A stretch of DNA of 64,000 nt from Spirulina sp. (GTDB taxonomy: Bacteria > Cyanobacteriota > Cyanobacteriia > Phormidesmidales > Phormidesmidaceae). The stretch covers positions 74,450 to 138,449 of the forward strand of contig JBIPSI010000016.1 in assembly GCA_044070495.1 (NCBI GenBank), in the 5' to 3' direction. How positions within the stretch are numbered: position 1 is the first letter of the stretch; every line of letters begins with the position of its first letter. A program made the translations under genes and the position numbers. The notes under the pieces are model-generated. The model did no database searches. It saw only the letters and a program-made list of their open reading frames with translations, and was not told the DNA's origin. Shown here piece by piece: positions 3,681-37,087 of the stretch.

Positions 3681-4076
3681 ATGGCTTGGGAATCCTACGG
3701 ACTCGATCAACTGGCTCAACAACTGGTGTTAGATGCCAAGGCCAGGGAACCGCAATCCCTGAATCAGGCCTACAAAATGCGGATGGCCACCGCCTACGGC
3801 CTAGAGCGTTTTTGGGGCGAACATCTGCGGCTGCAACGGCGAGAACTGAATGCCTCTCTGTTTTGGCAAGAAACCTGGGCCGCCTTGGTAACGGTGATGG
3901 CCCGCGCTGGGGTCAACCTGCCGAATCAGCGGGTGAACTCCGACGATGTGGCCTCCATTCGCGCTATTTCCGAAGCCCTGTGGCAGTTGCCCCTCAGCGA
4001 CCAGCGGGTGGCCCTAGCGGTGTTGACCCAGCTTTGCGACAGCCTCGTTTGGTGGACGCAGCGCTACAAGGGGTAA
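3681..4076 (+). CDS. cmr5: Cmr5/Cas11 small subunit
   Basis: Small helical protein starting 2 nt after the cmr4 stop (ATG 3681); position in operon; YGLERFWG and LVWWTQR motifs. Confidence 0.75.
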   Translation: MAWESYGLDQLAQQLVLDAKAREPQSLNQAYKMRMATAYGLERFWGEHLRLQRRELNASLFWQETWAALVTVMARAGVNLPNQRVNSDDVASIRAISEALWQLPLSDQRVALAVLTQLCDSLVWWTQRYKG

Positions 4077-4200
4077 GTCGGGTTCACACACCCGTAACGC
4101 ACTTGATTTATAAGGCTTTGATGCCTGACGCTAGCCCATCCTCCAGACTTCCAACCCTCCCATTGCGCTGATCTGGCTTAGGTTTCAGCTTTTTTACCCA

Positions 4201-16909: not shown

Positions 16910-18017
16910 CAATCCGGTGCAGCCCGTTCTGGCGATGCCGCCCGATATGGCCCTGTGGCAGCAGGGCGAGGCGATTGCAGACCCGGCGGCCCGCTGGCGC
17001 GTCTACCTGCATCATCTGGGATTCGCGGCCCTGCAAGCCTGGGTACAGGAGGAATGGGATCAACCGCTGCGGCTCTGGCCCGTCAACGCAGCGGAGCTCT
17101 GGCCGTGGGTGGAGGGGCTGGCCCTGGGGCTGGGTGATCGCCGCCTGGTGGTCATCCTCAGCGAGGCGATTGATGCCAGTGCTCTGACGGTGCCCCAGGA
17201 GTGGGTCGATATTCCCGGTTGGGCGGCGGACTACTACCTGGCGGCCCAGGTGGATGTGGACGAGCAGCGGCTGGTGCTGTGGGGCTATGGCACCCACGCC
17301 CAGGTGAAGACTCAGGGGCACTACGAACCGAGCGATTGCACCTACAGCCTGAGCGACGACGACCTAATTCAAGATTTTTCGGTCTTTTGGGTAGCCCAAC
17401 AGCTCGAACAGCCCCAAACCTTTTCCCTGCCTGAGTTGCCTCCCCTCTCAGAGGCCCAGGCCGAGCGCCTGATCGATCGGCTGGTCTATGCGGTGGAACC
17501 GAGACTAGAAATTCCCTTTGAGCAGTGGGGGGCGCTGCTCAGCGATGAGGGCTGGCGGCAACGGCTCTGGCGACAGCGGCGGGGGATGGTGGACCTGAGC
17601 GGCTGGCTGAGGGATTTGGTAGAACCGGGCTGGCGATCTCTGACTTCGCTGTTGCCCCGCACTCCGGCTTTGGGGTTTCGCTCCAGCGGTACTCAAAGTG
17701 CGACGGTCAGTCGGGGCAAGGCCATCTGGCTCAGTCCTCCCGACTGTTTCCTAGTGCTGGGCCTGCGGGTGACACCCACCGAGGATGATCGCCGCCGTAT
17801 TAGCGTGCAGCTCTTTCCCACCGATGTGGACCTGCTGCCTGTGGGCATGACCCTGACTCTGGAACTGCCGGAAACCGGAGAGCCCCTGCAAACGGTGCAG
17901 GCGGGGGGGCAGGACAACTATATACAAATTCCCAGTTTTCGCTGTCCGCCGGGGCAGCGGTTTCGGGTGAGCATTCAGCTGGCAGATGCTATCGTGCAGG
18001 AGGACTTCGTCAGCTAA
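16893..18017 (+). CDS. DUF1822 family protein
   Basis: LTVPQEWVDIPGWAADYYLAAQV, LWGYGTH, LSGWL..LVEPGW, DNYIQ; overlaps the sigma gene. Confidence 0.9.
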   Translation: MSLVFDNPVQPVLAMPPDMALWQQGEAIADPAARWRVYLHHLGFAALQAWVQEEWDQPLRLWPVNAAELWPWVEGLALGLGDRRLVVILSEAIDASALTVPQEWVDIPGWAADYYLAAQVDVDEQRLVLWGYGTHAQVKTQGHYEPSDCTYSLSDDDLIQDFSVFWVAQQLEQPQTFSLPELPPLSEAQAERLIDRLVYAVEPRLEIPFEQWGALLSDEGWRQRLWRQRRGMVDLSGWLRDLVEPGWRSLTSLLPRTPALGFRSSGTQSATVSRGKAIWLSPPDCFLVLGLRVTPTEDDRRRISVQLFPTDVDLLPVGMTLTLELPETGEPLQTVQAGGQDNYIQIPSFRCPPGQRFRVSIQLADAIVQEDFVS

Positions 18018-20476: not shown

Positions 20477-21214
20477 ATGACCATGAGACGTGCTGTGATG
20501 CGATCGTCCCTATCCGCCGCCATCTCCCTGGGGGTAGCTGCTGCCCTGGGATGGCCCCTGGTGCCTGTGGCCCAGGCCGTGCCTACCCCACCCGACCAGG
20601 GCGCACCCAGCGGACGGCAGCGAGGTGGAGCTTCTCGCGGTGACTGTATGGCCTATCAAGGCTTGACCGCGCTGGTGCCCGTAGTGGATGGCAGCGTCTG
20701 GAGTCAGACCCATAGCCCCACCCCCGACTTCTTCTTTTACATTCCGCAATCCCTCACCGCAGACGTTCCCCTAGAGATGGTGGTGCAGGATAGCGACGAT
20801 AACTACGTCTTCCGCAAGCAGTTCTCCGTCGATGCCGCCGCTGGCATTCTCACGGTTCCGGTTAGCCCTGCCGAGACTGAACTGACCCCCGGCGAAAGCT
20901 ACTCCTGGACCTTTTCAATCTACTGCGATGCAGCTCGTCCGTCGGCCTCGGTTGCTGTGTTTGGCACGGTTACTCGAGTGGCGGCTGGGACAATGCCTGA
21001 AGCAGGTCACCCCCTTACCCCGGCGCAACAGCTTGACCTGGCCAAGCAGTATGCCGCTGCCGGGATCTGGCACGAAGCATTGGGGCTGACCCTGGCGCTG
21101 CATCAGGCCGACCCAGACAATGCCGAATACCTCGAAGCGTTGGATGCGCTGCTTCAACAGGCTGGACTGGCGGACTTATCGCCTGCTGTGTCGGTGAGTG
21201 AGGTGCCTGAGTGA
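20477..21214 (+). CDS. DUF928 secreted protein
   Basis: Signal peptide, GGASRGDC..LTALVP, PDFFFYIP, YAAAGIWHEAL. Confidence 0.92.
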   Translation: MTMRRAVMRSSLSAAISLGVAAALGWPLVPVAQAVPTPPDQGAPSGRQRGGASRGDCMAYQGLTALVPVVDGSVWSQTHSPTPDFFFYIPQSLTADVPLEMVVQDSDDNYVFRKQFSVDAAAGILTVPVSPAETELTPGESYSWTFSIYCDAARPSASVAVFGTVTRVAAGTMPEAGHPLTPAQQLDLAKQYAAAGIWHEALGLTLALHQADPDNAEYLEALDALLQQAGLADLSPAVSVSEVPE

Positions 21215-21262
21215 TGGGGGCGGGGTGGTAGTGGGATGGTGGGGTAGTGAGATGGTGGGAAG

Positions 21263-24229
21263 ATGGGGAGTTATGAAACCGGTGTAATTCGTGCTCGTTG
21301 GCCTTTGGCCGCAGGAGCTGCACTTTTGGGCATGGTTGGCAGCCCCTTTCTGGTGCAGGCGCAGGTGATCCCAGATGCCACCCTACCGTCAGAAAACTCT
21401 ATCGTCACCACCGATGGCACGACCTCTCAAATCACGGGTGGGGCCATTCGGGGCGGCAACCTGTTCCACAGTTTTGAGCAGTTTTCGGTGCCCTTGGGCG
21501 ATACCGTTGTCTTTGCCAACGGGGACAGCTTTGCCAACATCATCAACCGCGTCACCGGGGGGACGCTTTCGGATCTCCAGGGGACGATCCAGGCGGGCGG
21601 TAACGCCAATGTATTCCTGATCAACCCCGCAGGTATTGTGTTTGGCCCCAATGCCCGGTTGGAGATAGGCGGCTCTTTCTTCGCCAGCACGGGGGAAGGG
21701 CTGCGGTTTGAGACTGGGTTTGTGTACGATGTCGCTGGCGCTGAGGCCCCGCCGCTGCTGACCATCAGTGCGCCCATCGGTCTCCGCTTGGGCAATGTTT
21801 CAGGGGGCAATGCCCCAGGGGATGTAGTGGTGGCTGGGGCAGACCTCTCCATGGCTGAGGGCCAAACCCTGGCCTTGATTGGAGGGAATATCTCCCTGAC
21901 GGGAGCGCAGCTCACTACCCCTGGAGGCCGCATTGAAGTTGGCAGCGTACAGGCAGGCCAGGAGCTAGGACTCGCCCCTGACGGGCTAGGGTTTGATGTG
22001 GGCTTCGACGGCGTGAATAACTTTGGCGATATTCAACTTTCTAATCGGTCGGTCTTGAATGCCAGCGGCGCAGGCGGGGGGGCGATCGCACTTCACGGCA
22101 ATACAGTCACCCTATCCGGTCAGTCAGCCATTATTTCCGATACCCTGGGCGATCAGGATGGTCGCGGTGTGCAAATTACTGCCGACAGTCTTCAACTCTT
22201 GGATAGCTCCTACATCGGGGCAGCGAGCCTAGGGCGCGGAGCCTCTAGCAGCATCGATATCACGGCAAACGATATCGTAATGGTCGGCACTGGCATCGCC
22301 AACTACAAACTTGTTGAGTTCAGTACCTTTTTAGGAGCCAGGCAGATTAGCGATCGCCAAATTGGTGGCATTTCTACAACCACCGTTGCGTCGGGCCGAA
22401 CCGGAAACATCTCCTTAAATGCTCAAAACATATTGATGGATGAAGGGGTGTTGCTGTCTACCGAGTCATTTGGCACGGGCGACAGCGGTGATATTAATAT
22501 TACTGCCACCGAATCGCTCCGCCTAAGAGGGTCAGGTGTTGTGTCGGGTAGTCAAGTGTCTGGAATACCCCTAGTCACTCCCGGTGGTATTCCCACTGGA
22601 TTATCCACTAGTAACATTCCAGCAGGTGAGGGTGGACGTATTGCGATCAATACAGCCCAGCTAGCTGTAGAAGATGGTAGTGCAATTGCAGCTATGACCC
22701 AAAGCGATCAACGTTCGGGAGATGTTGTTATCAGCGTCTCAGATTCAATCACGTTAAGGGGCTTTTTTGCCCCTTTCTTCCTTCCAACATCAGTCACGAC
22801 TATTACGATTGGTGGTAACGGGACAGCCGGAAATTTGCAAATTGAAACAGGTCGTTTAATTGTTCAAGATAGCTCAGCCATCTATGCCGACTCGGGTAGT
22901 CGAGGCATAGATGGCAACGTTACTTTTGGTGGAATAGCTGGTGATATATCTATCGTTGCCACTAATTCAGTTGATATTGTCGGCAATCGAACTGTTGTGG
23001 CTGGATTAGCAGCTAGTGGTGTGCGATCAAGAACCTTTTCTGATTCACCCGCAGGCACCATCCAGATCACCACACCAATCCTGAATGTTCGTGACGGCGG
23101 TCTCATTAGCAGTGCTACGTTGAATGACGGAGCAGGCGGTGCAATCAACATTGATGCCCAGACAGTTGTTGTGTCAGGGGATAGGAATCGCCCCACCGAA
23201 ACCTTCAGCAGTATTGGTGCCAGTTCAGGTATTGAGCGGCAGACAGCGTTTACCACCGGAGCGATTGAGTCTTTGCCCGCTGCTGGATCTGGGGGAAGCA
23301 TCACCATCAATGCGACGAATCTAGCCTTACAAGGTGCCGCTGAAATATCTGTGGGGAGTTTTGGGTCAGGCACTGCTGGCAACCTTGACATTACAGCTAA
23401 TACCGTTCGTCTAAATGATGGCGGCAGTCTAACTGCAACAACGACCTCCGGTGGAGGGGGCAATATTGCTCTGACATCCCAGACCCTGGCTCTTGACGGC
23501 AGCCACATCACCGCCAGTTCGGATAGCGGCGATGGCGGCAACCTGGCTTTTCATCTTCAGGATTTTCTACTGCTGAGAAACGGTAGTTTAATCTCTACTG
23601 AAGCGGGGACAGATGGGGCTGGGGGCAACGGCGGCGACATTGCCCTCAACCTGCCCACTGGCTTTCTCGTTGCCGTACCCACGGAAAATAGCGACATTCG
23701 CGCCAATGCCTTTGAGGGGGATGGCGGCAGCGTCACCATCACCGCCCGCAGTCTGCTGGGGATCGAATTTCGTCCTGACGTGATCGATACGCCCCTCAGC
23801 GACATTACCGCCAGCTCCCGTTTTGGCAACAGCGGCACGGTCACCATTGACGAACTGGCCCCAGATATCGCCCAGGACGATGTGGCCCTTCCGACTGAAA
23901 CAGCGCCAACAGAACTGGCCCAGGGCTGTCGGGGGCAGGGGGCACAGGCGGGTAGCTTCGTAGTTACCGGGCGTGGCGGTCTGCCCACCAACCCGGCTGA
24001 TTCGCTCAGCGCCGATTCCGTTTGGCAAGATTTGGCTCCCATTCCGCTGACTGAGGACGGTGCGGAGCCATCTTCTGAGGCCCCCGATCCTGAACCCATG
24101 GTTGCGGCTACCCCCATAGTCGAAGCCCAAAGCTGGACTAGGGCTGAGGATGGCACAGTAATGCTCCTGGCGGATGCCACCGCTGCGCCAGATCACTTTG
24201 TGTCAAGAGTGAATTGTGCGGGTAATTGA
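21263..24229 (+). CDS. Filamentous haemagglutinin-family (TpsA) beta-helical exoprotein
   Basis: TPS domain NLFHSFEQFSV, INRVTGG, FLINPAGIVFG; G.GG.I.I repeats; C-terminal ENSDIRANAF and FVVTGRGGLP. Confidence 0.93.
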   Translation: MGSYETGVIRARWPLAAGAALLGMVGSPFLVQAQVIPDATLPSENSIVTTDGTTSQITGGAIRGGNLFHSFEQFSVPLGDTVVFANGDSFANIINRVTGGTLSDLQGTIQAGGNANVFLINPAGIVFGPNARLEIGGSFFASTGEGLRFETGFVYDVAGAEAPPLLTISAPIGLRLGNVSGGNAPGDVVVAGADLSMAEGQTLALIGGNISLTGAQLTTPGGRIEVGSVQAGQELGLAPDGLGFDVGFDGVNNFGDIQLSNRSVLNASGAGGGAIALHGNTVTLSGQSAIISDTLGDQDGRGVQITADSLQLLDSSYIGAASLGRGASSSIDITANDIVMVGTGIANYKLVEFSTFLGARQISDRQIGGISTTTVASGRTGNISLNAQNILMDEGVLLSTESFGTGDSGDINITATESLRLRGSGVVSGSQVSGIPLVTPGGIPTGLSTSNIPAGEGGRIAINTAQLAVEDGSAIAAMTQSDQRSGDVVISVSDSITLRGFFAPFFLPTSVTTITIGGNGTAGNLQIETGRLIVQDSSAIYADSGSRGIDGNVTFGGIAGDISIVATNSVDIVGNRTVVAGLAASGVRSRTFSDSPAGTIQITTPILNVRDGGLISSATLNDGAGGAINIDAQTVVVSGDRNRPTETFSSIGASSGIERQTAFTTGAIESLPAAGSGGSITINATNLALQGAAEISVGSFGSGTAGNLDITANTVRLNDGGSLTATTTSGGGGNIALTSQTLALDGSHITASSDSGDGGNLAFHLQDFLLLRNGSLISTEAGTDGAGGNGGDIALNLPTGFLVAVPTENSDIRANAFEGDGGSVTITARSLLGIEFRPDVIDTPLSDITASSRFGNSGTVTIDELAPDIAQDDVALPTETAPTELAQGCRGQGAQAGSFVVTGRGGLPTNPADSLSADSVWQDLAPIPLTEDGAEPSSEAPDPEPMVAATPIVEAQSWTRAEDGTVMLLADATAAPDHFVSRVNCAGN

Positions 24230-24589: not shown

Positions 24590-24645
24590 AAATTTTCTCA
24601 AAGTCAGGGCTGAGCCCTGCATACTTCGTTCCGATCCGCCGTATA
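24590..24645 (+). promoter_or_regulatory. Promoter-like motif copy 1: TCTCA-N10-TGAGC then TGCATAC-N14-CCGTAT
   Basis: TGCATAC 24618-24624, CCGTAT 24639-24644; upstream of the PAS gene. Confidence 0.7.
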
Positions 24646-24699
24646 CGCCTTTAATCAGCGGTATCCGTTGGGAGAAAAGCGACGGCCTGAGGGGGCTAC

Positions 24700-24829
24700 T
24701 TGGTTGACTGACAAAAGATCCTGCGCCGGACGCGGAAACCGTGCCCCTACAGGATTTGGATAATGTAGGGGTCAGGTCTCCTGACCCTTTGGCGGATTTG
24801 GGTTCTCGCAAGTTTTGTCAGTCAACCAG
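24700..24829. mobile_element. 130-bp MITE with terminal IRs, 9-bp target duplication and internal GTAG REP pair
   Basis: TGGTTGACTGACAAAA / TTTTGTCAGTCAACCA; GGGGGCTAC at 24691-24699 and 24830-24838; homologue at 46379-46508. Confidence 0.85.
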
Positions 24830-24951
24830 GGGGGCTACTGGCCCTGGTGACAGTCAAAAGTCAGCCCAGAGGCGATCGCACCTCTACTTTCAAGACAATC
24901 AACAGGAGTTAGAAACGGTGAACCTGAACGGATGTTGGAGTTGACGTCACT

Positions 24952-26511
24952 GTGAAACGCTATCTAGCTCATCTGTTTCAAATTTCAGTTAATCGTCCGG
25001 TTACGACCGTTATGGTTGCGATTTTTTTGACGCTGTCACTGTTTTTACCTCTGGGTTGGAGCGCCTGGAATGCGTACCAAACCTTTAGCCGCGTCATCGT
25101 CAATGACTTTCGCCTGCAATATCTGGTGGGTTCAATTATTCACCTGGATGAAGTGCTCACCATGTCAGCTCGGATGAACGCTGCTACGGGCGATACCCGC
25201 TGGGAAGGGCGCTACAACGACTTTGAACCGCAATTGGATGCTGTGATCAAAGAAGCAATCGCGATCGCCCCAGACACCTACGAAGGGGAAGGCGCTGCGC
25301 AAACCGACATTGCTAACCAAAAGCTGGTCGCCATGGAAGTGCAGTCGTTTGAACTGGTGCGCAACGGGCAGCAGGCAGCGGCAGCCGATTTACTGTTTAG
25401 TGCCAATTATGAACAGCAAAAAGTGATCTACGCCGAGGGCATTCAGCGGGGACTCGACGCCACCCAGGAGCGAATTCGCGAGAACCAGAAAAATTTTGCT
25501 CAGCAGCTAATTCTTGCCAGTGCGATCGCCGCCTTCAGCCTGCTAATTCTGCTGCCAATCTGGTGGGTAGTCTTGCAGGTCTTGCAGCGCTACCTAGACG
25601 CTCGTAACACCGCAGAACATGCCCTCCACGCCGCCAAAGATCAGCTAGAAGCTGTCTTAGACGCCGTACCCGGCCCCATCTCTTGGATTGATGCGGGCGG
25701 CGTTTATATTGGCGTCAATCGGTACCTAGCCAACAGCTGGAGCATGGCCCAGGGAGCATTTATTGGGCGCAGCGTTAACTCCCTCAACGGCAATGCCCAA
25801 CTGGCCCAGTTTTTGCAGGAGTTCCTCACAAACTCCCGTAAATCGGACTCCCGCACCATCGAAGTCGAAATTAAAGGCGTACTCCGCTACTTTCTCGTCG
25901 CGGTGCAAAAGTATCAGCGGGGTACAGCGGCGGTTTCGGTGGGCATTGATATCACCGAGCGCAAACAGGCCGAAGAAGCCCTACGTGTCGCCGAAGAAAA
26001 CTATCGCAGCATCTTTGAAAATGCCCTCGAAGGAATTTTTCAATCCTCCCCAGAGGGCTACTTCATCAGGGTTAATCCAGCCCTGGCAAAGATTTACGGC
26101 TATGACTCACCCCACGACATGATCAAAAGCATTACCAATATTTCAAAACAGCTCTATGTGGATGCAGAAAGACGGGCAGAATTCATCACCGCGATTGAAA
26201 AATATGGCACCGTCAAAGATTTTGAATACCGTGGCTACTGTAAAAATGGCCGCATTATCTGGACTCAAATTGATGCCCGTGCGGTTACCGATGGTAATGG
26301 CAAAGTGATCTACTACGAAGGTATTGTGCAGGACATAACTGAACGCAAGCAGCAAGAAGAGTCCTGGAAGCGGCAGTTGCAGGAATTACAAATCGAAATT
26401 GACCATAAGCAGCGGGCGCGTCAAGTCGCTGAAATCAGCTCAACGGACTATTTTCAACAGTTGATGGCCGAAGCCGATGATTTAAGAAATTTTGATAATG
26501 AGTGGAGTTGA
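24952..26511 (+). CDS. Membrane sensor with two PAS domains and no enzymatic output domain
   Basis: Two TMs around a periplasmic helical domain (LDEVLTMSARM); PAS motif YRSIFENALEGIFQ...EGIVQDITERK; tail LQIEID...DYFQQL. Confidence 0.85.
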   Translation: MKRYLAHLFQISVNRPVTTVMVAIFLTLSLFLPLGWSAWNAYQTFSRVIVNDFRLQYLVGSIIHLDEVLTMSARMNAATGDTRWEGRYNDFEPQLDAVIKEAIAIAPDTYEGEGAAQTDIANQKLVAMEVQSFELVRNGQQAAAADLLFSANYEQQKVIYAEGIQRGLDATQERIRENQKNFAQQLILASAIAAFSLLILLPIWWVVLQVLQRYLDARNTAEHALHAAKDQLEAVLDAVPGPISWIDAGGVYIGVNRYLANSWSMAQGAFIGRSVNSLNGNAQLAQFLQEFLTNSRKSDSRTIEVEIKGVLRYFLVAVQKYQRGTAAVSVGIDITERKQAEEALRVAEENYRSIFENALEGIFQSSPEGYFIRVNPALAKIYGYDSPHDMIKSITNISKQLYVDAERRAEFITAIEKYGTVKDFEYRGYCKNGRIIWTQIDARAVTDGNGKVIYYEGIVQDITERKQQEESWKRQLQELQIEIDHKQRARQVAEISSTDYFQQLMAEADDLRNFDNEWS

Positions 26512-26514
26512 CCC

Positions 26515-27273
26515 ATGGCCGAAGTTGTATTGGTTCATTCCTTTCGCGGTGGCACCGGAAAATCTAACACCACCGCCAATTTGGCGACCACAATCGCCCG
26601 CACGGGCAAACGGGTGGCGGTGATCGACACTGATATTCAATCCCCTGGTATTCACGTGTTGTTTAGCATGGAACAGGTCGATTCCCAAATCACGCTTAAC
26701 CAATATTTGTGGGGCAACTGTTCTGTAGAGGAGGTCGCCCATGATGTCAGCCCCGATGAGGTGAAACAGAACGGCGGGCAGGTATTTTTAGTGCCATCGA
26801 GTAGCGATGCGGGCGACATCACCCGAATTTTGCACGAAGGGTATGACGTGCGTCTGTTAAAAAAAGGCTTTGCCAGCCTGATCAAAACGCTCACCCTGGA
26901 CTATGTTTTTGTAGATAGCCATCCAGGATTGAACGAAGAAACCCTGCTGTGCATCGCGGTTGCCAACACGCTGATCGTGATTTTGCGCCCCGACCGTCAA
27001 GACTTTCAGGGTACTGCCGTGATGGTCGATTTGGCCCAAAAGCTCAAGGTGCCCAGAATTTTGATGGTGGTGAATCGGGTGATGCAAAATTCTGACCCCG
27101 AGATGGTGCGCCAACAACTTCAAGCCAAATATGAGGTGCCCGTCGTCGGGGTGTTGCCCAACTGCGACGAGATGATGCAGCTCGCCAGCAGCGATTTGTT
27201 TTCGCTGCGATATCCGGATCATCCCCTGACCCAGATTTACCACCAGGTGGCCGATAAGGTTATGACCACCTAA
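26515..27273 (+). CDS. MinD/ParA family ATPase
   Basis: HSFRGGTGKS, IDTDIQSPG, DSHPGLNEET. Confidence 0.9.
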   Translation: MAEVVLVHSFRGGTGKSNTTANLATTIARTGKRVAVIDTDIQSPGIHVLFSMEQVDSQITLNQYLWGNCSVEEVAHDVSPDEVKQNGGQVFLVPSSSDAGDITRILHEGYDVRLLKKGFASLIKTLTLDYVFVDSHPGLNEETLLCIAVANTLIVILRPDRQDFQGTAVMVDLAQKLKVPRILMVVNRVMQNSDPEMVRQQLQAKYEVPVVGVLPNCDEMMQLASSDLFSLRYPDHPLTQIYHQVADKVMTT

Positions 27274-27298
27274 GCCCTTTCGTAATACTGGCTCAGCC

Positions 27299-29551
27299 AT
27301 GAAAGCTTCCTCCCGCAAGTCCCAACTACCTCAATTCACCCTAGGCACCCAAGTGCGTCAGGAATTACAGCCTGCTCGGCTCGTCCCCACGCTGACAGCA
27401 GGGTTGATTACGGGAGTTCTGCTGGTGATTTACGCCATTTCAATGGCAGCGTTAATCTTTACTGGTTCTCTCGTCGAATTTATTCCCATTGGCATTGGCT
27501 TAACGCTGTTCACGGCGATTGTTATAGCCATCATCGTGGCGTTAACAAACTCGATGCCAGGAATCGTCATCATGCCCCAGGATTCTCCAGCGATCATTCT
27601 GGCCATGATGGCGAGTGCGATCGCAGCCCAACTGCCAGCCTCTGATCCGGCCCTGTTACCCACGGTGATGATGGCACTGGCAATCGCCACCGGAGTCGTG
27701 GGTATCGTTTACTTTTTACTTGGCTCCTTCAAACTCGGCAATTTAATCCGCTTTATTCCCTATCCAGTGGTGGGCGGCTTTCTGGCGGGCACTGGCTACT
27801 TACTTGCCCAGGGTGCCTTCAACGTAATGACGGATCAGTTTTTTAATCTAGCGGATTTACCGGCTTTACTGACCCCAACGATGGCTGTACGTTGGCTACC
27901 CGGCTGTGCCGTTGGCCTGACTTTAGTGGTCTTGCTGCGCCGCTACAACAATGTGTTTATTATGCCGGGCATTATCGTTGGCAGCACCCTGGCGTTTTAT
28001 TTGACCCTATGGCTAACTCGAACACCCATCAGCCATGCCCAGGAGTTGGGGCTGCTCTTTGGCGATTTCCCTAAAGGTGGGCTGTGGCAACCCCTGCATT
28101 GGTCAATGCTGACCCAGGTCAACTGGGCGCTCATTTTAGGTCAGGTCGATAAAATGGCGACCGTGACACTGCTTTCAGTGATTGCTCTTTTGCTGAACGT
28201 GTCGGGTATTGAGCTGGCCGCCCGTCAGGATATCGACCTGAACCGGGAGCTGCAATCAACCGGGATTGCCAATGTGATTGTTGGCCTAGGCGGTGGCATT
28301 GTGGGTTTCCATGCCCTGGGTCTATCCGTTTTAAGCTGCGCCAAAATTAATGCCAAAAGTCGTCTGGTAGGAGTGCTCGCCGCCAGTATTTGTGTCGTTA
28401 CCCTGCTGCTGGGGGATACGTTGGTCACGTTGTTTCCGAAACCGGTGCTAGGAGGGGTGGCTCTATTTTTGGGTTTAAGCTTTTTGGTGGAGTGGGTCTA
28501 CGACGCCTGGTTTAAGCTGCCGAAAACAGATTATGGCATTGTTATCTTGATCCTGTTTGTAATTGCCACCGTTGGCTTTTTACAGGGGGTCGGCGTCGGT
28601 ATCGTCGTCGCCATTGCCCTGTTTGTAGTCAGTTCTAGCCGAGTCAACGTCACCAAACACATCCTCTCCGGTGCCACCCACCAGAGCCACAGGGCTCGCA
28701 GCTTACCCCAAACCCGAATTCTTCAGGAGGAAGGCGATCAGATCTACATTCTCGATTTGCAGGGGTTTCTTTTTTTTGGCACTGCCAATGCCCTACTAAA
28801 GCGCGTTCAAGATAGGCTTAATGATAACTGCCTCACTCCCTTAAAGTACGTCGTTCTCGACTTTCAGGCGGTCAACGGACTCGACTCTTCAGCGGTACTC
28901 AGCTTTGTCCGCCTCAAGCAACTCTTGCAGCAACAGCAGGTCAAACTGGTGCTGACCCATCTCAGCCCAGCGATTCGCACCCAGCTCAAGCGGGGGGGAT
29001 GCCTACTGCCGGATGACCTGGCTTGTCAGGCGTTTGCCGATCGCGATCGCGGCCTGGAATGGTGTGAAAATGACCTGCTCGGGGTGATTCCCCTACGACG
29101 CGCCCGCACTCTGCCGCTGCTGCTTCAGCTCAATGATCTGTTTCCGGCCCGTGATGTCGCCACTGAATTCATCGACTACCTGGAAGAGTGGGACGCCGAA
29201 CCAGGGGAATACATCTATCAACAGGGTCAGCCCGCCGATACCCTTGATCTGATCGAAGTGGGTGAGGTGGCCGTATATCTGGATGGGCAACAGGAACAAA
29301 CTCATCGCATTCAAGCGCTAGGGGCAGGCAACGTGGTCGGAGCGGTAGATTTTTTCCGTCACTCCAATCACCAAACGACAGCGATCGTCGAAGCGCCCAG
29401 CACCCTCTATCGATTAACGGTAGAGAGCTTCCAGCGTATGGAAAAAGAGCACCCCGAGGTGGCAACGGCGTTTCAGGCGGCGGTGATTCAAATTTTGGGT
29501 GATCGGCTCACCTATGCCTACAAAGAAATTGCCGACCTGCTGCGATCGTGA
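27299..29551 (+). CDS. SulP family anion transporter with STAS and cNMP-binding domains
   Basis: RFIPYPVVGGFLAG, QGFLFFGTA (STAS), C-terminal cyclic-nucleotide-binding fold. Confidence 0.9.
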   Translation: MKASSRKSQLPQFTLGTQVRQELQPARLVPTLTAGLITGVLLVIYAISMAALIFTGSLVEFIPIGIGLTLFTAIVIAIIVALTNSMPGIVIMPQDSPAIILAMMASAIAAQLPASDPALLPTVMMALAIATGVVGIVYFLLGSFKLGNLIRFIPYPVVGGFLAGTGYLLAQGAFNVMTDQFFNLADLPALLTPTMAVRWLPGCAVGLTLVVLLRRYNNVFIMPGIIVGSTLAFYLTLWLTRTPISHAQELGLLFGDFPKGGLWQPLHWSMLTQVNWALILGQVDKMATVTLLSVIALLLNVSGIELAARQDIDLNRELQSTGIANVIVGLGGGIVGFHALGLSVLSCAKINAKSRLVGVLAASICVVTLLLGDTLVTLFPKPVLGGVALFLGLSFLVEWVYDAWFKLPKTDYGIVILILFVIATVGFLQGVGVGIVVAIALFVVSSSRVNVTKHILSGATHQSHRARSLPQTRILQEEGDQIYILDLQGFLFFGTANALLKRVQDRLNDNCLTPLKYVVLDFQAVNGLDSSAVLSFVRLKQLLQQQQVKLVLTHLSPAIRTQLKRGGCLLPDDLACQAFADRDRGLEWCENDLLGVIPLRRARTLPLLLQLNDLFPARDVATEFIDYLEEWDAEPGEYIYQQGQPADTLDLIEVGEVAVYLDGQQEQTHRIQALGAGNVVGAVDFFRHSNHQTTAIVEAPSTLYRLTVESFQRMEKEHPEVATAFQAAVIQILGDRLTYAYKEIADLLRS

Positions 29552-29573
29552 GGCAGCTCATGGGCCAGATATT

Positions 29574-29600
29574 TGCATACTTAGCCCAAACCAGCCGTAT
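29574..29600 (+). promoter_or_regulatory. Promoter-like motif copy 2
   Basis: TGCATAC-ttagcccaaaccag-CCGTAT. Confidence 0.65.
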
Positions 29601-29838
29601 ATGTTTGTGAGTTAAATCTCACTTACAAAACCACCGGCCAGGGCTGCGAACTATCTTTTGATATTCCGGTACTGGTCATTTTTTTGACCACCCAAGCAGA
29701 GCCCTACTTAGAGCCTGCCCCTATGCTTGAAATGCGAGTCAAGGCACGACTGACGGGACGCGAATTCTTATAGGCGATGCAAGGCCCGCTCCAAGTATGA
29801 CGCTTGGGGGGCGATCGCTAATATTTGCCAAACGAAAG

Positions 29839-29887
29839 TTTCAAATTCAGGCCTGAGAATTGCATACTCACCCTATGGCAGCCGTAT
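29839..29887 (+). promoter_or_regulatory. Promoter-like motif copy 3
   Basis: TTTCA-N10-TGAGA then TGCATAC-tcaccctatggcag-CCGTAT; about 75 nt before the patatin ATG. Confidence 0.7.
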
Positions 29888-29961
29888 TATCCTGTGAGCA
29901 CATCGTTTGGCTCACCGTTAACGATAAATTTAGGGCCAGATACCATATAAGAGCAATCTCT

Positions 29962-31023
29962 ATGAAGAAAATTCTGAGTATCGACGGCGGTGGCATTCGA
30001 GGTTTGATTCCGGCCATGGTGCTGACAGAAATTGAAAGGAGAACCAATCAGCCCATTTCAAAGAGCTTTGATCTAATCGCAGGTACTTCAACTGGAGGAA
30101 TTCTAGCGCTTGGGCTTAGTAAGGCTGACGAGAGCGGGCAGCCCGAATTTTCTGCCAAAGCCCTGAGCGAAATCTATACAAATCACGGCAAAACCATATT
30201 TCCCCAGGGCACCTGGGCTTCTGCTGCCCGGCACCTTTGGGTCGGATTTGGTATGTCGGAGAAAATTTATTCTCACCAAGGCTTAGAAGAAGTGCTTAGG
30301 GATAAGGTTGGAAATGCAACCCTGGGTGATGCGCTGGGTAGAGTACTGATTTCAACCTACGACATTGTCGGTGGAGAACCTGTCTTTTTCAAAAGCTGGG
30401 ATGGCCCCCACAAAGCCGTGAAGATGGTTGATGTGGCTCGCGCTACATCGGCGGCCCCTACCTACTTCGAGCCTCACCAAGTAACGATTACCTACGAAAA
30501 AGAAGAGTATTTTGAGAAGTATAACCTGAGCTACAAAAAAGAAAAATTCAAGAAAATTATTGTCGAGAAAGTCATTGATGGAAAAGAGATGATTGAAAAA
30601 ACGTACACATTGGTGGATGGAGGAATTTGTATCAATTCTCCCGCAGTTTCCGCCTATGCCGAGGCTAAGCGCCTTTTTCCTGAAGAGCAAGACTTTTTAG
30701 TCCTGTCATTGGGCACAGGGCAAATTAATCCTGAAACGACTTACCAGCAAGCGAGGGCTTGGGGGATGGCTTCCTGGGCTAGGCCACTGATCAAGTTCAT
30801 GTTTGATGGTGTCTCTGATGTGGCCGACTATCAACTGCGAAATATTTTGAGCGGCGAACCTAAGCGTTACTACCGCATGCAGACCGATATCCATGAGGAT
30901 TCGGGTGCCATGGATCTTGCCAGTGATGAAAATATTCTCAGATTAATCAACGGCGCTACAAGTCTGATCAGAGAGCAAGATGCAAACCTGAATGAACTCT
31001 GTGGTTTGCTAAGCGGCTCATAG
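29962..31023 (+). CDS. Patatin-like phospholipase
   Basis: ILSIDGGGIRG, GTSTG, ATSAAPTYF, DGG; ATG at 29962. Confidence 0.93.
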   Translation: MKKILSIDGGGIRGLIPAMVLTEIERRTNQPISKSFDLIAGTSTGGILALGLSKADESGQPEFSAKALSEIYTNHGKTIFPQGTWASAARHLWVGFGMSEKIYSHQGLEEVLRDKVGNATLGDALGRVLISTYDIVGGEPVFFKSWDGPHKAVKMVDVARATSAAPTYFEPHQVTITYEKEEYFEKYNLSYKKEKFKKIIVEKVIDGKEMIEKTYTLVDGGICINSPAVSAYAEAKRLFPEEQDFLVLSLGTGQINPETTYQQARAWGMASWARPLIKFMFDGVSDVADYQLRNILSGEPKRYYRMQTDIHEDSGAMDLASDENILRLINGATSLIREQDANLNELCGLLSGS

Positions 31024-31074
31024 CGCCTGCATAGATGCTTCAGTTTGTCCATTTGTATACTTTTTATCACTGCC

Positions 31075-32112
31075 ATGACTCTTCTTTCAAACAGCCTCAA
31101 GATTTCTGCAACAGTAACGACAGCTGCTCTCCTAGCTACCTGCTTTTCCCCTAGTGCGATCGCCGACCAGCCGACCATTGTCACCGTTCAGAAACTCACC
31201 GCTGGCGATCGCGCCTGCTATGTCGATGTCATTGATGCGGGGGGAGTCTACTCTACAGAATATGCAGCTTTCGAGGTTTGTGAGCAAGATTTAGTCGGTA
31301 GAGACGTGAATCTTATCTATGAGCCGGGCAGCATTATAGCTGTCTCGTGCCAGGGCGATCCGGCCTGTAGCGAAACTGAAACGGTGATGCTGATTACCCA
31401 GGCTGAAATCATCGAGGCTCCGACAGTGGGCGTTATCCATGAGGTTATTGTAGGGGACAGAGCCTGTGATATTGGATTTACAGATGAAACGGGAGAACTC
31501 TGGTACCGCCAAGCAACCTTTGCAGTCTGTAATCAAGATTTAATCGGTGACACTGCGCAATTTACCTATGAAGTAGCGGAGATTTCAGCCTATGCTTGCG
31601 AGGGCGATCCAACCTGTGAGCAAACCGATGTCGTGACTCTGATTACCAATGTCGAAATTGTTTCTGACTTGACCCCCAATTTAATCAATGATAGACCTCA
31701 AGGTCGCGTGCAGGATCTCCCCGATGGCAACTATCGCTACTGGAGCGGCACCACCGATCAAAGTATTGTTTCTGACGATATCCTGATCAATAACGGAGGC
31801 ACCTTATTTCTGTTCCGAAAGCAGGGTGATAATGTTACAGGCATTTTCTCTTATGTGAATGCGGAAGCCATCTGTATTAGCGGCCAAGTCAATGGCAACA
31901 CCGTCAGCGGTCGGGCGGTGCAAACGGGGGAGGGGATTTCTGTCCTGAGTAGCGGAGAAACCTTTGCAAACTTTGGGCCGAGTGAGACCTTGTCTCTACG
32001 TCGAGGTCGCCAGGTCAGCGATGAACAGGTTCGCTATGGCAGCGCCCTTCTAAATCTCGCAGAACTCAATCGCATTAATGCCGGTACAGCCCTTCCCCCA
32101 GGAGGATGCTAG
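31075..32112 (+). CDS. Secreted protein with two tandem Cys-containing repeats
   Basis: Signal peptide; GDRAC...FxVCxQDLxG...CxGDPxC..T..V.LIT occurs twice. Confidence 0.75.
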   Translation: MTLLSNSLKISATVTTAALLATCFSPSAIADQPTIVTVQKLTAGDRACYVDVIDAGGVYSTEYAAFEVCEQDLVGRDVNLIYEPGSIIAVSCQGDPACSETETVMLITQAEIIEAPTVGVIHEVIVGDRACDIGFTDETGELWYRQATFAVCNQDLIGDTAQFTYEVAEISAYACEGDPTCEQTDVVTLITNVEIVSDLTPNLINDRPQGRVQDLPDGNYRYWSGTTDQSIVSDDILINNGGTLFLFRKQGDNVTGIFSYVNAEAICISGQVNGNTVSGRAVQTGEGISVLSSGETFANFGPSETLSLRRGRQVSDEQVRYGSALLNLAELNRINAGTALPPGGC

Positions 32113-32280
32113 AACTCATTATGTGCCCTGAGACTATCAAGAAAAATAGGCTTGGGGTGCGTGACAGTTTTCCTTCAACAGATCGTTTCAACCTGTGCTA
32201 GCGTAGGTAGATCGCAGGGCTTGATTTGAATGAGATCGTCTACGGGTGAGGTGCGATCAATGATAGTTGCCAAAAGAAAT

Positions 32281-32329
32281 TCTCAAACTTAGGGCTGAGA
32301 GCTGCATACTCCGTAAACATCAACCGTAT
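32281..32329 (+). promoter_or_regulatory. Promoter-like motif copy 4
   Basis: TCTCA-aacttagggc-TGAGA then TGCATAC-tccgtaaacatcaa-CCGTAT; about 30 nt before ATG 32359. Confidence 0.7.
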
Positions 32330-32358: not shown

Positions 32359-33264
32359 ATGTTATTGATACCTGAACTTGAAAGAGTAAACCATTGGGCT
32401 TCGGTTCACAGTCCACTACATTCCCATAGATCTGCAAAGCGCGAACGTCAATCGGTAACACATTTTGCACCATTATTCCTTACAGAAAGTAACGTTGGCG
32501 AGCATGGCTTTCAACCGCCTGTAGTCTCTGGAAGCGCTTTAGTCGGAGATGGGAAGGAAAATGGCTTAAGGAAAGATTTAGAAGTAGGCAATTGTCTACC
32601 TGGTTTAGGAGAACCTCTTACTGCAGAGGGGTATAATGCTCTGTTAGAACAATATCGTGGAAGTCCGCTCACTGGTTGTACAACCGTAATGGATATGGCA
32701 AGGATAAAAGCCGGTTATAACCCCCTTAGTCCAGACTTTGACGGTAATAAGTCAGCTTTCGATGATTACGTTTCAAGAATAATGCAGTCTCCTTTTTTCT
32801 TTCTCGATTATTCAAGCCGAACGGATTATCACAAGGAAGAGCAAAATTGGGATCAAGCGATTAGTGGAATTGCTGATCTCTATGAGGGAATTGAATCTGG
32901 CAGTAAAGATTCAATAGTCAAAAGCTTAGCAGCCATGGCCCAGGCAGCAGCCTCAAGAAAGAACACAAAAAACACGCAGAACTTGTTTGCGCAAAGCACA
33001 ATAAGCATCAATGATAAAATCGAGGTTTTTATTTACTCCAGCCTAGTTGAGATGGAGGAAAGCCAGTCTAAGGGTAGCGATTCTAAGCAGACTGATATGA
33101 CCATCATAAAAGCTAAGTTAACCTTTTACAGCACTATGTGGCCATCATACGCGCAGATGGTGCTAGGTCATCATATAAAGCTAACGAGTGATTGGTTAGA
33201 CGAGAATACATTAAAGTCAGGTTCTGAAACAACAAATCTGAATTTAGGACAAAATAAAGCATAG
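32359..33264 (+). CDS. Hypothetical protein, Evf/Cyt-like candidate
   Basis: AT-rich 301-aa ORF; SPFF..I.DLYEGI...I..SL..MA.AA.S...QNLFAQ...FIYSS...DWL pattern recalls the Evf family. Confidence 0.5.
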   Translation: MLLIPELERVNHWASVHSPLHSHRSAKRERQSVTHFAPLFLTESNVGEHGFQPPVVSGSALVGDGKENGLRKDLEVGNCLPGLGEPLTAEGYNALLEQYRGSPLTGCTTVMDMARIKAGYNPLSPDFDGNKSAFDDYVSRIMQSPFFFLDYSSRTDYHKEEQNWDQAISGIADLYEGIESGSKDSIVKSLAAMAQAAASRKNTKNTQNLFAQSTISINDKIEVFIYSSLVEMEESQSKGSDSKQTDMTIIKAKLTFYSTMWPSYAQMVLGHHIKLTSDWLDENTLKSGSETTNLNLGQNKA

Positions 33265-33375
33265 GGTGAGACTGGTTTCGCAAAAACACAAGATTGGGAG
33301 ATTAATGAAGTTTCGTCATCTCCCAATCTTATTGATTACACATCGAAATCCGCGAAAAATATACCGAATAGGCTT

Positions 33376-34248
33376 TTGACTAGAATGAATTTAGAAAGCA
33401 CTAATAAGTGGATTGAACACGTAAACAGTTTTCCGGTTGAATTTAATCTTGATCCTACCCGTATCCATCCGTTCACCCTTGAGCTTCCATCTAGCATATC
33501 AACTAACAATAAAACGTCTGGTGTGGGCGCAATATTATTAGGAAAAGGAATAACAGAAGTTCATAAGCAAGCGGAAGAGCTGGCAGCAACAAAGCCAGAG
33601 GAAAGACCGTGGGAAAATTCAGATTGGTTAGATAAATTTAGTGCTTCTCCTGCAAACGGATTGGCCAGCATTTTAGGTTTTATACAGCATAGAGTGAACT
33701 GGAATCCAATTAGAAATTCCGAAGCGACACGGAATAATTTCTCGGCCTTTATTAACCTACTTTCACTTAGCCCATATTTGGCACATAATATTGTTGACAA
33801 AACCAAAGTTAACTTCAAGAATAAAGACTATCCGAAGATAATTGATGAAATTCTATCTCTGTACACTGGATTATCTCCTGAGCAAATGCAGGATGTGAAG
33901 ACTAACTTGCGGCAAATGGTGTATGCGGCTTTATCAGAAGCGGGTAGTCAGCAAACCAATACATTATTTGTTCAAAACATTATGGAAGTTAAGACGCCAG
34001 ACATAATAGCTTTCTACGTGTACTCTTCGAAGGTTTCATTTATTTACCATGGCGGGAAGCATCATTTCATGGAGACACATGCCATAATTGATCGCATTAA
34101 ACTTATCTTTGATGCATCAAAGGTTTGGAATCGTACCACTGCTGCAATTGTTTCTGGAATCCTATATAACGATGTCAATCAATGGTTAGAAAACAATAAT
34201 GCTCCTGATAAACAGTCGATTCAACCCACAATAGATCTGTGTTTCTAA
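33376..34248 (+). CDS. Divergent paralogue of the upstream Evf-like protein
   Basis: Shares NP, SPY, LY.G, TLFVQN, YVYSS, KL.F and QWLENN in register with 32359-33264; start may be ATG 33385. Confidence 0.5.
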   Translation: MTRMNLESTNKWIEHVNSFPVEFNLDPTRIHPFTLELPSSISTNNKTSGVGAILLGKGITEVHKQAEELAATKPEERPWENSDWLDKFSASPANGLASILGFIQHRVNWNPIRNSEATRNNFSAFINLLSLSPYLAHNIVDKTKVNFKNKDYPKIIDEILSLYTGLSPEQMQDVKTNLRQMVYAALSEAGSQQTNTLFVQNIMEVKTPDIIAFYVYSSKVSFIYHGGKHHFMETHAIIDRIKLIFDASKVWNRTTAAIVSGILYNDVNQWLENNNAPDKQSIQPTIDLCF

Positions 34249-34450: not shown

Positions 34451-37042
34451 ATGGCGTGGCGCATTGATAGCGTGCTTTCCTGGCTGCGGCTATTCAAACT
34501 AAGCCTTTACCTATTTTTAGGCATAGTCCTTGCCTTCACTCCCGTTTGGGGACTTAGTCTAGTCCATGCTGGAGAAGCGAGAATGGCTGAGATCGCCGCT
34601 TCCCCCTCGCCTAACGACCTGCTCGATCAGGGTCGCCAAGCTTATACATCCCAGCGATATATCGAGGCTGTAGCCGCTTGGGAAGAGTCAACAATGTTAT
34701 TCACTGATCGCCCGCTCCAGCAAGCCCTGGCTCTCGGCTATCTCACCCTGGCGCACCAGCAACTCAGCCAGTGGGACGCCGCCGATCGCACCATCACCCA
34801 CAGCTTAAACCTCCTCGCCACCGCCCCCGACTCCCCCCAAAAGCTGGCCGTGAGCGCCCAGGTTCACAACACCCTCGGCAGCCTGCAATTTGCCCTAGGG
34901 CAGACCCAGGCTGCCCTAGAAACCTGGCACACCGCTGCCGAGCTGTACAAGCAAACCGGAGACGAAAGCCGCTACGTCAACGCTCTCCTAAACCAGGTAC
35001 AGGCCCAGCAGTCATTGGGATACTACCAGCCCGCGCGGCGTACCCTGGCGACCCTGGAGCAGCGCCTGCCGCTACAGTCGCTGCCCGTGCAGGTGCTGGG
35101 CTATCAACGGCTAGGGCAGACCTACCGCCTGCTGGGCGACCTGGAAATGGCCCAGGCTCATTTGCAGACTGCTTTGGAACTGGCGCAGCGAGAGCGCTTA
35201 GCCACGGGGGCCATCTTGCTGGGGCTGGCCAATACGGCCCAGGGGCAGGGAGACTGGCAGAGCGCAATCGCTCTCTACCAGCAAGCCGAACAGACCCAGG
35301 AATCCGACATTCGCCTCAAGGCCCGCCTGAACCGACTCAGCCTGTTAGCCCAGCACGATCCTGAGGCGGCTCCACCGCTGGCCGTCTCTCTACCGAGAGA
35401 TCTAGCCGAAATGCCCCCAGGGCGCAGCCAGATCTATGCCCACATCAACGCGGCCCAAAGCCTGCTCCAGCTTAAAACCCCTGCTGAGGTCGAAACCGCT
35501 GCCCGACTGCTGGCCCAGGCCATTCAGCAGAGCATGGCCTTGCAAGATACCCGTGCCGAAGCCTATGCCAGGGGCTATCTGGGCCACGCCTACGAGGTCT
35601 CCCAGCAGTGGCCGGAGGCGCAGCAGTTAACCGAGCAAGCTCTGACCCTGGCCCAAGCCCTCAATGCCGCCGATATCGCCTACCAGTGGCACTGGCAGCT
35701 AGGTCGCCTGCTCAATCAACAGGGGCAACCAAACCTGGCTTTGCCAGCCTACCGGAATGCTTTCACCGCCCTGCAATCCCTCAAACAAGATCTAGTAGCC
35801 GTCAGCGACGACCTCCAGTTCTCCTTTCGCGACAGCGTCGAGCCAGTCTACCGAGAGCTGGTCGATCTGCTGCTGCAACCGGAACCCCAAACACCCTCTT
35901 CCGTCACCCCACCACCCCACTACCCCACCACCCGCCTCACCGAAGCCCGCTTAGTCATCGAAGCCTTGCAGATCGCCGAACTCAACAATTTCTTTAGAAC
36001 CGCCTGCCTGGAGGGTGAGCAGGTCGCCCTTGAGGCGGTGAGTCAGTCCACCACCGCCGTCATTTACCCAATTATTCTGCCGGATCGGCTGGAGATCATC
36101 GCCAGTCTGCCGGGGCAGCCCCTGCGGCAGTACACCAGCCCAGTGCCCCAGGCAGCGCTGGAGCAGACCCTGACGGACTGGCGGCAAAACCTGGAACGGC
36201 GGTTCACCGCTCCCGAGGGCAGGGCCCTGGGACAGCAGCTCTACCGCTGGCTGATTGACCCGATGCAGGAGGTACTGGCCGAAACCCGGCCCCAAACCCT
36301 GGTCTTCGTGCTGGATGGTGCCCTGCGAAACACCCCCATGGCGGCCCTGTACGACGGGGAGCGGTATTTGGTGGAAGACTATGCGATCGCCCTCTCCCCC
36401 GGTCTCCAACTTCTCGGCCCCCGGCCTTTACAGGACAGTCGGATGGCGGCACTCTTGGCAGGGCTGACGGAGCCTAGACATGGCTTTAGCGCCCTCACCA
36501 ACGTGAACAACGAGATTCAAACCATTCAGGCGCTGCTCGACAATCGGGTCTTGCTCGATGAACAGTTCACCACAACAGCCCTAGCCCAGCAGATCGCAAA
36601 GACTGAGCTGCCCATTGTGCACCTGGCCACCCATGCCCAGTACAGCTCTAATCTGCAAGACACCTTCATTCTGGCCTGGGATCGCCCCATGCCGGTGGAT
36701 GAGTTGAGCCTCCTGCTCAGCGCCGGAGACCAGAGCCGGGTGGAACCCATTGAGCTGCTGGTGCTCAGCGCCTGCGAGACGGCCACCGGAGACAACCGCG
36801 CCGCCCTGGGTTTGGCGGGTCTGTCGCTCCAGGCGGGTGCCCGCAGTACCCTGGCCTCCCTGTGGAATTTAGACGACGCTTCTGGAGCGTATTTTATTCG
36901 CCAGTTCTATCAAGCCCTGGCCCAGCCCGGTGCAACTAAAGCCAAAGCGCTGCGCCAGGCCCAAAGGTCGCTGCTACAGCATCCTGACTACCGCCATCCG
37001 ATCTATTGGTCGGCCTATGTGCTGGTGGGAAACTGGCTGTAG
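34451..37042 (+). CDS. Exported TPR-CHAT protease
   Basis: N-terminal hydrophobic segment, TPR repeats, FSFRDSVEPVYR, VHLATH, LVLSACETA, HPIYWSAYVLVGNWL. Confidence 0.93.
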   Translation: MAWRIDSVLSWLRLFKLSLYLFLGIVLAFTPVWGLSLVHAGEARMAEIAASPSPNDLLDQGRQAYTSQRYIEAVAAWEESTMLFTDRPLQQALALGYLTLAHQQLSQWDAADRTITHSLNLLATAPDSPQKLAVSAQVHNTLGSLQFALGQTQAALETWHTAAELYKQTGDESRYVNALLNQVQAQQSLGYYQPARRTLATLEQRLPLQSLPVQVLGYQRLGQTYRLLGDLEMAQAHLQTALELAQRERLATGAILLGLANTAQGQGDWQSAIALYQQAEQTQESDIRLKARLNRLSLLAQHDPEAAPPLAVSLPRDLAEMPPGRSQIYAHINAAQSLLQLKTPAEVETAARLLAQAIQQSMALQDTRAEAYARGYLGHAYEVSQQWPEAQQLTEQALTLAQALNAADIAYQWHWQLGRLLNQQGQPNLALPAYRNAFTALQSLKQDLVAVSDDLQFSFRDSVEPVYRELVDLLLQPEPQTPSSVTPPPHYPTTRLTEARLVIEALQIAELNNFFRTACLEGEQVALEAVSQSTTAVIYPIILPDRLEIIASLPGQPLRQYTSPVPQAALEQTLTDWRQNLERRFTAPEGRALGQQLYRWLIDPMQEVLAETRPQTLVFVLDGALRNTPMAALYDGERYLVEDYAIALSPGLQLLGPRPLQDSRMAALLAGLTEPRHGFSALTNVNNEIQTIQALLDNRVLLDEQFTTTALAQQIAKTELPIVHLATHAQYSSNLQDTFILAWDRPMPVDELSLLLSAGDQSRVEPIELLVLSACETATGDNRAALGLAGLSLQAGARSTLASLWNLDDASGAYFIRQFYQALAQPGATKAKALRQAQRSLLQHPDYRHPIYWSAYVLVGNWL

Positions 37043-37087
37043 CCCTATAATGCAGTCGCCACAACCGTAGTTTTTCTAGCCCCCACC

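Follow-up and report, generated by a model that had tools for sequence, protein, structure and literature searches.

A two-block DNA motif, TGCATA-N16-CGTA, occurs five times in a genomic island within a 64,000-nucleotide stretch of Spirulina sp. DNA (contig JBIPSI010000016.1, positions 74,450 to 138,449; hereafter the window), and is very probably, with a probability of roughly 0.85, the -35/-10 promoter of the sigma-70-family factor encoded by the first gene of that island (Table 1). Such a promoter had been proposed in an earlier reading of the same sequence, hereafter the original prediction. It is now favoured by the conservation of a copy lying inside the sigma gene, by the enrichment of a single spacer length on a single strand, by a T-purine step at a fixed distance from the motif, and by the presence of both a sigma2 and a sigma4 fold in the model of the factor.

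The original prediction listed four plus-strand copies of TGCATAC-N14-CCGTAT, and all four are exact. They are the sole exact matches in the genome (5,313,730 bases); none of 100 shuffles of the window yielded even one match, and spacers of 10-13 and 15-19 nt between the same two blocks gave no match anywhere in the genome. A fifth copy, TGCATAT-N14-CCGTAC, had been overlooked; it lies inside the sigma gene and was found when two mismatches were allowed. The 7- and 6-nt blocks first described are therefore exact in four copies, but conservation reduces to a core of TGCATA-N16-CGTA, with C or T as the seventh base, and across the sigma family the core reads TGCATA-N16-C(G/C)TA. Five of the six genomic matches to TGCATA-N16-CGTA are on the island, and elsewhere the 16-nt spacer is in no excess over other spacers. 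As described earlier, a TYTCA-N10-TGAG block precedes copies 1, 3 and 4 and is absent ahead of copy 2. Since copies 1 and 4, and copies 3 and 4, are 78% identical over 51-65 bp, copies 1, 3 and 4 look like duplicates of one promoter block; the upstream block is a candidate auxiliary site or a candidate relic of the duplication.

Conservation of the internal copy was assessed codon by codon in an alignment of 103 distinct homologous sigma genes (34-100% identity, identical duplicates dropped), with expectations derived from codon use. The third base of codon 377 is A in 98 of the 103 genes, across Val, Leu, Ile and Ala codons, against an expectation of 21.5, which makes it the strongest of 375 positions. 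The codons that hold the other motif bases, 369, 370 and 376, rank 4th, 6th and 7th: their third bases are G in 95/100 (40.3 expected), T in 102/103 (55.6 expected) and C in 83/103 (39.2 expected), while the spacer codons vary freely. TGCATA is intact in 93 of the 103 internal sites. Judged by these synonymous positions, the internal copy is kept at the DNA level across the sigma family. It lies 65 nt ahead of the start of the DUF1822 gene, which follows the sigma gene in 98 of the 103 cases, four of the other five lying near the end of the available DNA. In one locus (L129) the DUF1822 gene has moved upstream, and there both halves of the internal site are lost. As a positive control of the procedure, the second-strongest synonymous constraint falls on codons 110-111 (GCG ATC), which fits the cyanobacterial HIP1 repeat. 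A sigma gene with a large internal deletion (G062:C180:33824-34166) has retained its internal promoter copy.

Outside the sigma gene, spacing and orientation are constrained too. In 39 close loci, the 16-nt spacer gave 18 intergenic sites in sense orientation versus none in antisense, and each other spacer at most one; in 64 distant loci the figures were 46 and 5, with at most 8 for any other spacer. Downstream of the motif, at positions unused in the search, the ninth base after CGTA is T in 20 and the tenth a purine in 20 of the 21 distinct close non-coding sites. This T-purine step, an indirect sign of a start site, occurs at the presumed -1/+1 position in 26 of 40 distinct non-coding sites; at other offsets it is seen at most 9 times, leaving aside those immediately behind the element. 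It is present in all five window copies, and in the internal copy its T occupies a synonymous position in 80 of the 103 sigma genes (45.1 expected). With the purine taken as +1, TGCATA spans -35 to -30 and CGTA -13 to -10, the very places that TCCGGA and TGTA occupy in the sigma-HetZ open complex according to the sections of PMC13342950 cited here. What was found is thus what a sigma-70 promoter consists of, two asymmetric elements at a fixed spacing and in a fixed orientation upstream of genes. Transcript data were sparse: the one metatranscriptome examined holds 0.06 of the words. RNA contigs of relatives, about 90% alike, span the genes from sigma to TPS, and one of them starts at 16771, ahead of the predicted start. 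As start sites cannot be read from contigs, these were not used as evidence.

The factor itself matches Pfam region 4 and, weakly, region 2 (the sigma2 match is below cut-off), and scores 90 bits with TIGR02937 against a cut-off of 42.9. In the structural model, whose predicted local distance difference test score (pLDDT) is 71, residues 55-148 superimpose on sigma2 of RpoS with a Z of 11.5 and a root-mean-square deviation of 1.9 over 90 residues, and a sigma4 domain is also present. Sigma2 and sigma4 therefore follow each other in order, as in the sigma-70 family. The best sequence match in the PDB is sigmaF (1l0o); Foldseek retrieved sigma factors with the whole model, with poor TM-scores. 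The gene is single-copy in the genome, which belongs to a filamentous cyanobacterium, and its closest named relatives are Nodosilinea records. A direct tie between factor and motif is suggested by residue 344 of the sigma4 helix, which is Tyr or Phe in all 98 genes with C at -33, the five genes devoid of an aromatic residue there carrying A or G and belonging to two lineages; this co-change is suggestive but confounded, because base -33 also alters residue 370.

The original prediction expected the motif to accompany the sigma factor across genomes. In a comparison of 56 order-level genomes with the sigma gene and 94 without it, the exact motif fits this expectation, being found in 15/56 and 2/94, respectively (reversed control, 4/56 and 1/94). 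One of the two sigma-less genomes carries a remnant of a deleted sigma gene; in the other (G032) none was found. The loose pattern does not fit: it exceeds its reversed control alike in genomes with sigma (0.47 versus 0.29 per Mb) and without (0.25 versus 0.15), rates from which all 79 sigma matches were subtracted to remove the internal sites, an over-correction. Since the loose pattern fails to separate the two groups, the genome-level test has a mixed outcome. As far as motif matches tell, the regulon appears to be small and for the most part local.

This behaviour of the loose pattern weighs against the proposed promoter, as do several other observations. G032 has a promoter-like copy, and no sigma was found in it. 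Five of 20 exact matches in other genomes are not promoter-like, which leaves a promoter-like exact match in 12 of the 56 sigma genomes, and many sigma loci show the internal copy only. The close set of loci used for the spacer counts includes the window, a few loci were collected from the surroundings of motif hits, and kin are not independent. On a FastTree tree, the external form of the -10 element, CGTA or CCTA, follows clades with few switches, and the internal copy reads CGTA in 11 of the 24 CCTA loci; no single residue could be singled out behind the switch, many alignment columns splitting the clades equally. Finally, the change at -33 may be protein-driven through residue 370, and none of the five loci concerned had an external site.

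Some of these points would be accommodated if the motif were read by another widespread cyanobacterial sigma factor, such as a HetZ paralogue or an ECF factor like SigG, the island genes being part of that regulon. The -10 element does resemble the TGTA of HetZ, three HetZ-like genes are present in the genome, and both the loose-pattern excess in sigma-less genomes and the G032 site would be explained. Such a reader is nevertheless unlikely, given the near confinement of the core to the island and the lack of spacer excess elsewhere, the three of six positions at which the -35 element differs from the TCCGGA of HetZ, and the change of base -33 along with the recognition helix of the island sigma. 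It is less likely still that a dimeric DNA-binding protein uses the motif as its operator, an ATAC-N16-GTAT dyad, or that the sigma-like protein is a plain regulator that binds it independently of RNA polymerase. ATAC and GTAT are indeed inverted in the four intergenic copies, the upstream CTCA-N10-TGAG is itself a dyad, and the sub-threshold Pfam sigma2 match could speak for a plain regulator; yet the three positions needed for a full palindrome fit in just 7, 6 and 9 of 40 sites, which is chance level, many sites read TGCATAT, the orientation is fixed relative to genes, and a complete sigma2 fold is predicted. The alternative offered in the original prediction, a cassette array with the copies as its recombination sites, is highly improbable: cargo does differ in GC content and between genomes, changing right behind motif copies, and one genome (G081) has copy 3 and the start of the patatin gene fused to the next gene, but none of the five PF00589 (tyrosine recombinase) matches in the genome is on the contig of the window and no recombinase is among the window proteins scanned, single-strand hairpins are inconsistent (1 of 10 strands at 2 of 200 shuffles), there is no dyad symmetry beyond ATAC/GTAT and no repeat of a tRNA end, one copy is under selection within the sigma reading frame, and copies stand ahead of isolated genes elsewhere. 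Integration of the island at tRNA-Thr is likewise not supported, since the 3' end of that tRNA is not repeated on the contig and, within the DNA available, a tRNA of any kind is found in one of 11 related loci. Homologous exchange between the 78%-alike promoter blocks, together with block duplication, can explain the variable cargo.

Table 1. Features of the sigma island, in window coordinates.
Feature	Position	Strand	Remarks
Sigma-70-family factor, 403 residues	15698..16909	+	N-terminal extension, sigma2 ~55-150, insertion ~155-255, sigma4 ~300-365, C-terminal helix
Fifth (internal) promoter copy	16803..16829	+	Sigma codons 369-377; predicted start 16838, 55 nt upstream of the DUF1822 ATG
DUF1822 protein, predicted anti-sigma	16893..18017	+	Candidate cut site Arg263-Ser264 in a low-confidence linker; Pfam
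CHAT protease fused to CHASE2 sensor and membrane helices	17986..20388	+	Pfam; FFAGHS (His) and LNSCD (Cys) motifs in the translation
DUF928 protein and TPS (filamentous-haemagglutinin-type) exoprotein	20477..24229	+	Constant island part; Pfam, order as in sister loci
Upstream TCTCA-N10-TGAG block of copy 1	24594..24615	+	Same block ahead of copies 3 and 4
Promoter copy 1	24618..24644	+	Predicted start 24653; would drive PAS-MinD-SulP
Miniature inverted-repeat transposable element, ~130 bp	24701..24828	.	Terminal inverted repeats, ~10-bp target duplication; leader of the PAS gene, downstream of copy 1
Cargo unit 1: membrane PAS protein, MinD/ParA ATPase, SulP-STAS-cNMP transporter	24952..29551	+	Pfam
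Promoter copy 2	29574..29600	+	Predicted start 29609
Candidate ~80-nt structured RNA ending in seven T	29609..29690	+	Directly downstream of copy 2
Promoter copy 3	29861..29887	+	Predicted start 29896; would drive patatin and the next gene
Cargo unit 2: patatin phospholipase (ATG 29962) and 355-residue protein with no Pfam match	29962..32112	+	
Promoter copy 4	32303..32329	+	Predicted start 32338, 21 nt upstream of an ATG
Cargo unit 3: two paralogous low-GC proteins	32359..34248	+	Lead to Evf/Cyt fold
TPR-CHAT protease and ShlB-type transporter, island end	34451..38869	+	Pfam; same place in sister loci

The island (15698-38869) is ordered, by Pfam, as sigma, DUF1822, CHAT-CHASE2, DUF928, TPS exoprotein, cargo, TPR-CHAT and ShlB. 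In sister genomes this frame is constant; the cargo between TPS and TPR-CHAT varies, with motif copies ahead of the cargo units. The deviating base composition of the cargo, noticed earlier, was confirmed, GC content ranging from 0.52 down to 0.38 compared with 0.60-0.61 in flanking core genes. The original prediction placed the copies ahead of the PAS-MinD-SulP, patatin and Evf-like units, which holds for copies 1, 3 and 4. Copy 2, by contrast, has no gene of its own: it lies 23 nt 3' of the SulP stop, and the patatin gene is served by copy 3. The stretch directly behind it folds with a z of -3.57, none of 200 shuffles being equally stable, and is kept in genomes G068 and G081; it has no match in Rfam, whose sole match is a tRNA, and was not picked up by the terminator scan. 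Copy 2 probably drives this ~80-nt RNA instead of a cargo gene, and the stretch is a candidate sigma-dependent small RNA or, alternatively, an operon terminator fronted by a promoter. At 29606-29621 and 29893-29915, across the predicted starts of copies 2 and 3, are short inverted repeats, GTGAG...CTCAC, whose half-site recurs in the upstream dyad.

Behind external motif copies in relatives (loci L001-L140; of the 42 proteins scanned, 37 belong to the 65 genes that come first downstream) are MinD/PAS/histidine-kinase units, caspase-nSTAND proteins, NB-ARC/NACHT ATPases, Cu/Zn superoxide dismutase, RTX, FG-GAP and peptidoglycan-binding proteins, M15 peptidases and second CHAT proteins; many targets are signal-peptide-like proteins that match nothing in Pfam. 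The two paralogues of cargo unit 3 (23% identical, E 8e-14) match neither Pfam nor PDB sequences. The lead to Evf comes from a first Atlas match of 0.96, in a cluster of which 13% carries the Evf label, the structure rows being below the naming bar. The patatin (29962-31023) scores 206 bits, above the NCBIfam cut-off of 200, as a CBASS cGAMP-activated phospholipase; no cyclase was seen among the proteins scanned. The transposable element downstream of copy 1 belongs to a family with dozens of copies in the genome, and its site is empty in G096. Between 24230 and 24500 lies the remnant of a reverse-strand gene, represented by an intact 257-residue open reading frame in G096 and a shorter remnant in G068.

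Farther from the motif copies, type III-B CRISPR cmr genes (Cmr2/Cas10, Cmr3, RAMP) are found at 23-5937, about 10 kb upstream of the island and with no motif copy. A 529-residue protein with 4Fe-4S and C-terminal helix-turn-helix regions (13145-14734) recalls the nif activator CnfR/PatB in its architecture. By Pfam, an iron-uptake cluster with FeoAB, TonB-dependent receptors, AraC regulators and ABC transporters occupies 40700-62700.

How the factor might be controlled is suggested by its two neighbours. The model of the complex between sigma and DUF1822 scored 0.84 versus 0.00 for the best control, with at least 81% of contacts agreeing between runs and a partner pLDDT of 82; among 157 solved pairs 116 attain the complex-score mark, and among 215 mismatched pairs 2 do, counts that hold roughly here, as own alignments were used. 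The modelled contacts involve sigma residues 139-151 and 342-355 as well as the insertion, and thereby both DNA-reading surfaces, which supports a putative role of DUF1822 as anti-sigma. DUF1822 is modelled as an alpha/beta N-domain followed by a beta-sandwich C-domain; a fold search gave PD-(D/E)XK-like and Ig-like matches, respectively, with Z under 8, and is not decisive. All 95 homologues have a basic residue at position 263 (Arg in 91, Lys in 4), and in 77 of them the next residue is Ser or Gly; the position lies within a segment (257-269) of pLDDT below 50. In the sections of PMC9457339 cited here, HetF cuts PatU3 between Arg117 and Ser118. In the comparison made here, PatU homologues keep Arg-Ser/Gly at that position. 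Of 47 sensor proteases, 46 have the CHAT His motif and 41 the Cys motif. The label EACC2-caspase-CHASE2 type for the protease is taken over from the part of PMC8195603 cited here.

From these elements a cascade can be drawn, to which, with cleavage included, I give slightly better than even odds. Judging from the models, DUF1822 would bind sigma over the sigma2 helix and the sigma4 recognition helix and hold it inactive. By analogy with HetF, PatU3 and HetZ, a signal at the CHASE2 sensor would activate the CHAT protease, which would cut DUF1822 after Arg263 and free sigma. Free sigma would transcribe the cargo units and, from the internal copy, make more DUF1822 and protease, forming a feedback loop. 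Cargo genes, variable between genomes, would enter this control by gaining or inheriting a promoter copy.

The gene neighbourhood is already known. Kaur et al. predicted it in 2021 (PMC8195603), describing EACC2-caspase neighbourhoods with an ECF sigma and DUF1822 and proposing protease activation that ends in sigma-driven transcription; the island carries the same gene set by Pfam, sigma, DUF1822 and a caspase-fold protein with a C-terminal sensor. In the part of that text cited here, neither a promoter nor a regulon is given, nor an internal site, an anti-sigma role or a cut site, and DUF1822 is labelled a TPR protein, unlike the two-domain model obtained here. No paper with the promoter was found in the literature searched, a negative on which subscription journals and supplements such as published start-site tables could bear. 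Filamentous cyanobacteria possess many CHAT (caspase-like) proteases with no known output. The promoter with its predicted starts, the predicted anti-sigma and the predicted cut site make the 2021 prediction testable in E. coli, where cyanobacterial RNA polymerase has already been reconstituted, and the regulon of each genome can be listed by means of the motif. A promoter confined to five sites in its genome would also be a candidate orthogonal switch for cyanobacterial engineering.

Among characterized systems, the Bacillus SigW-type ECF promoters (TGAAAC-N16-CGTA) share with the island a TG-led -35 element, a 16-nt spacer, a CGTA -10 element and an autoregulatory position; they differ in the -35 core, the island sigma is twice as long, and its anti-sigma is predicted to be soluble. 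In CRISPR defence, a CHAT domain is reportedly coupled to the release of an ECF-type sigma in the Csx29/Csx30/CASP-sigma system and in Myxococcus DdvA/DdvS. The island differs in having neither Cas7-11 nor a membrane TPR-CHAT anti-sigma, in its sigma family, and in its variable non-CRISPR cargo.

The closest parallel is sigma-HetZ of Anabaena PCC 7120. According to the cited sections of PMC13342950 and PMC9457339, this factor of ~400 residues has insertions and reads promoters with a 16-17-nt spacer and an xGTA -10 element (PMC13342950); the gene directly downstream, which it activates, encodes its inhibitor, cut at Arg-Ser by the CHAT protease HetF (both sources). Sigma size and insertions, promoter geometry, downstream inhibitor gene, CHAT protease and Arg-Ser linker are thus common to both, the promoter geometry, the inhibitor and the cut being predictions on the island. 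The island sigma is nonetheless outside the HetZ family, because the HetZ profile NF037963 matches three other genes in the genome and not this one, and because profile alignment (hhalign probability 12.9%) is limited to the helix-turn-helix. For DUF1822 against PatU, hhalign gives 0.9%; an Atlas feature match of 0.82 to a 'putative PatU' cluster is a lead only. The island -35 element is TGCATA and not the TCCGGA of DIF1, the island regulon comprises five local sites compared with hundreds for HetZ, and the island protease, a CHASE2 membrane sensor, has its gene in the same operon. No consistent DIF1 promoter was found inside the hetZ genes of 31 loci. It is an evenly balanced proposition that the island typifies a widespread family of protease-gated sigma factors in filamentous cyanobacteria, a second one that parallels HetF/PatU/HetZ but is distinct from it, in which the promoter of the inhibitor would lie in the codons of the sigma4 tail, a CHASE2-CHAT receptor would cut DUF1822 at a conserved Arg, and the island would be a self-contained platform recruiting exchangeable cargo (secreted, lipolytic and defence-like proteins, a small RNA) by duplication of a promoter block of ~65 bp.

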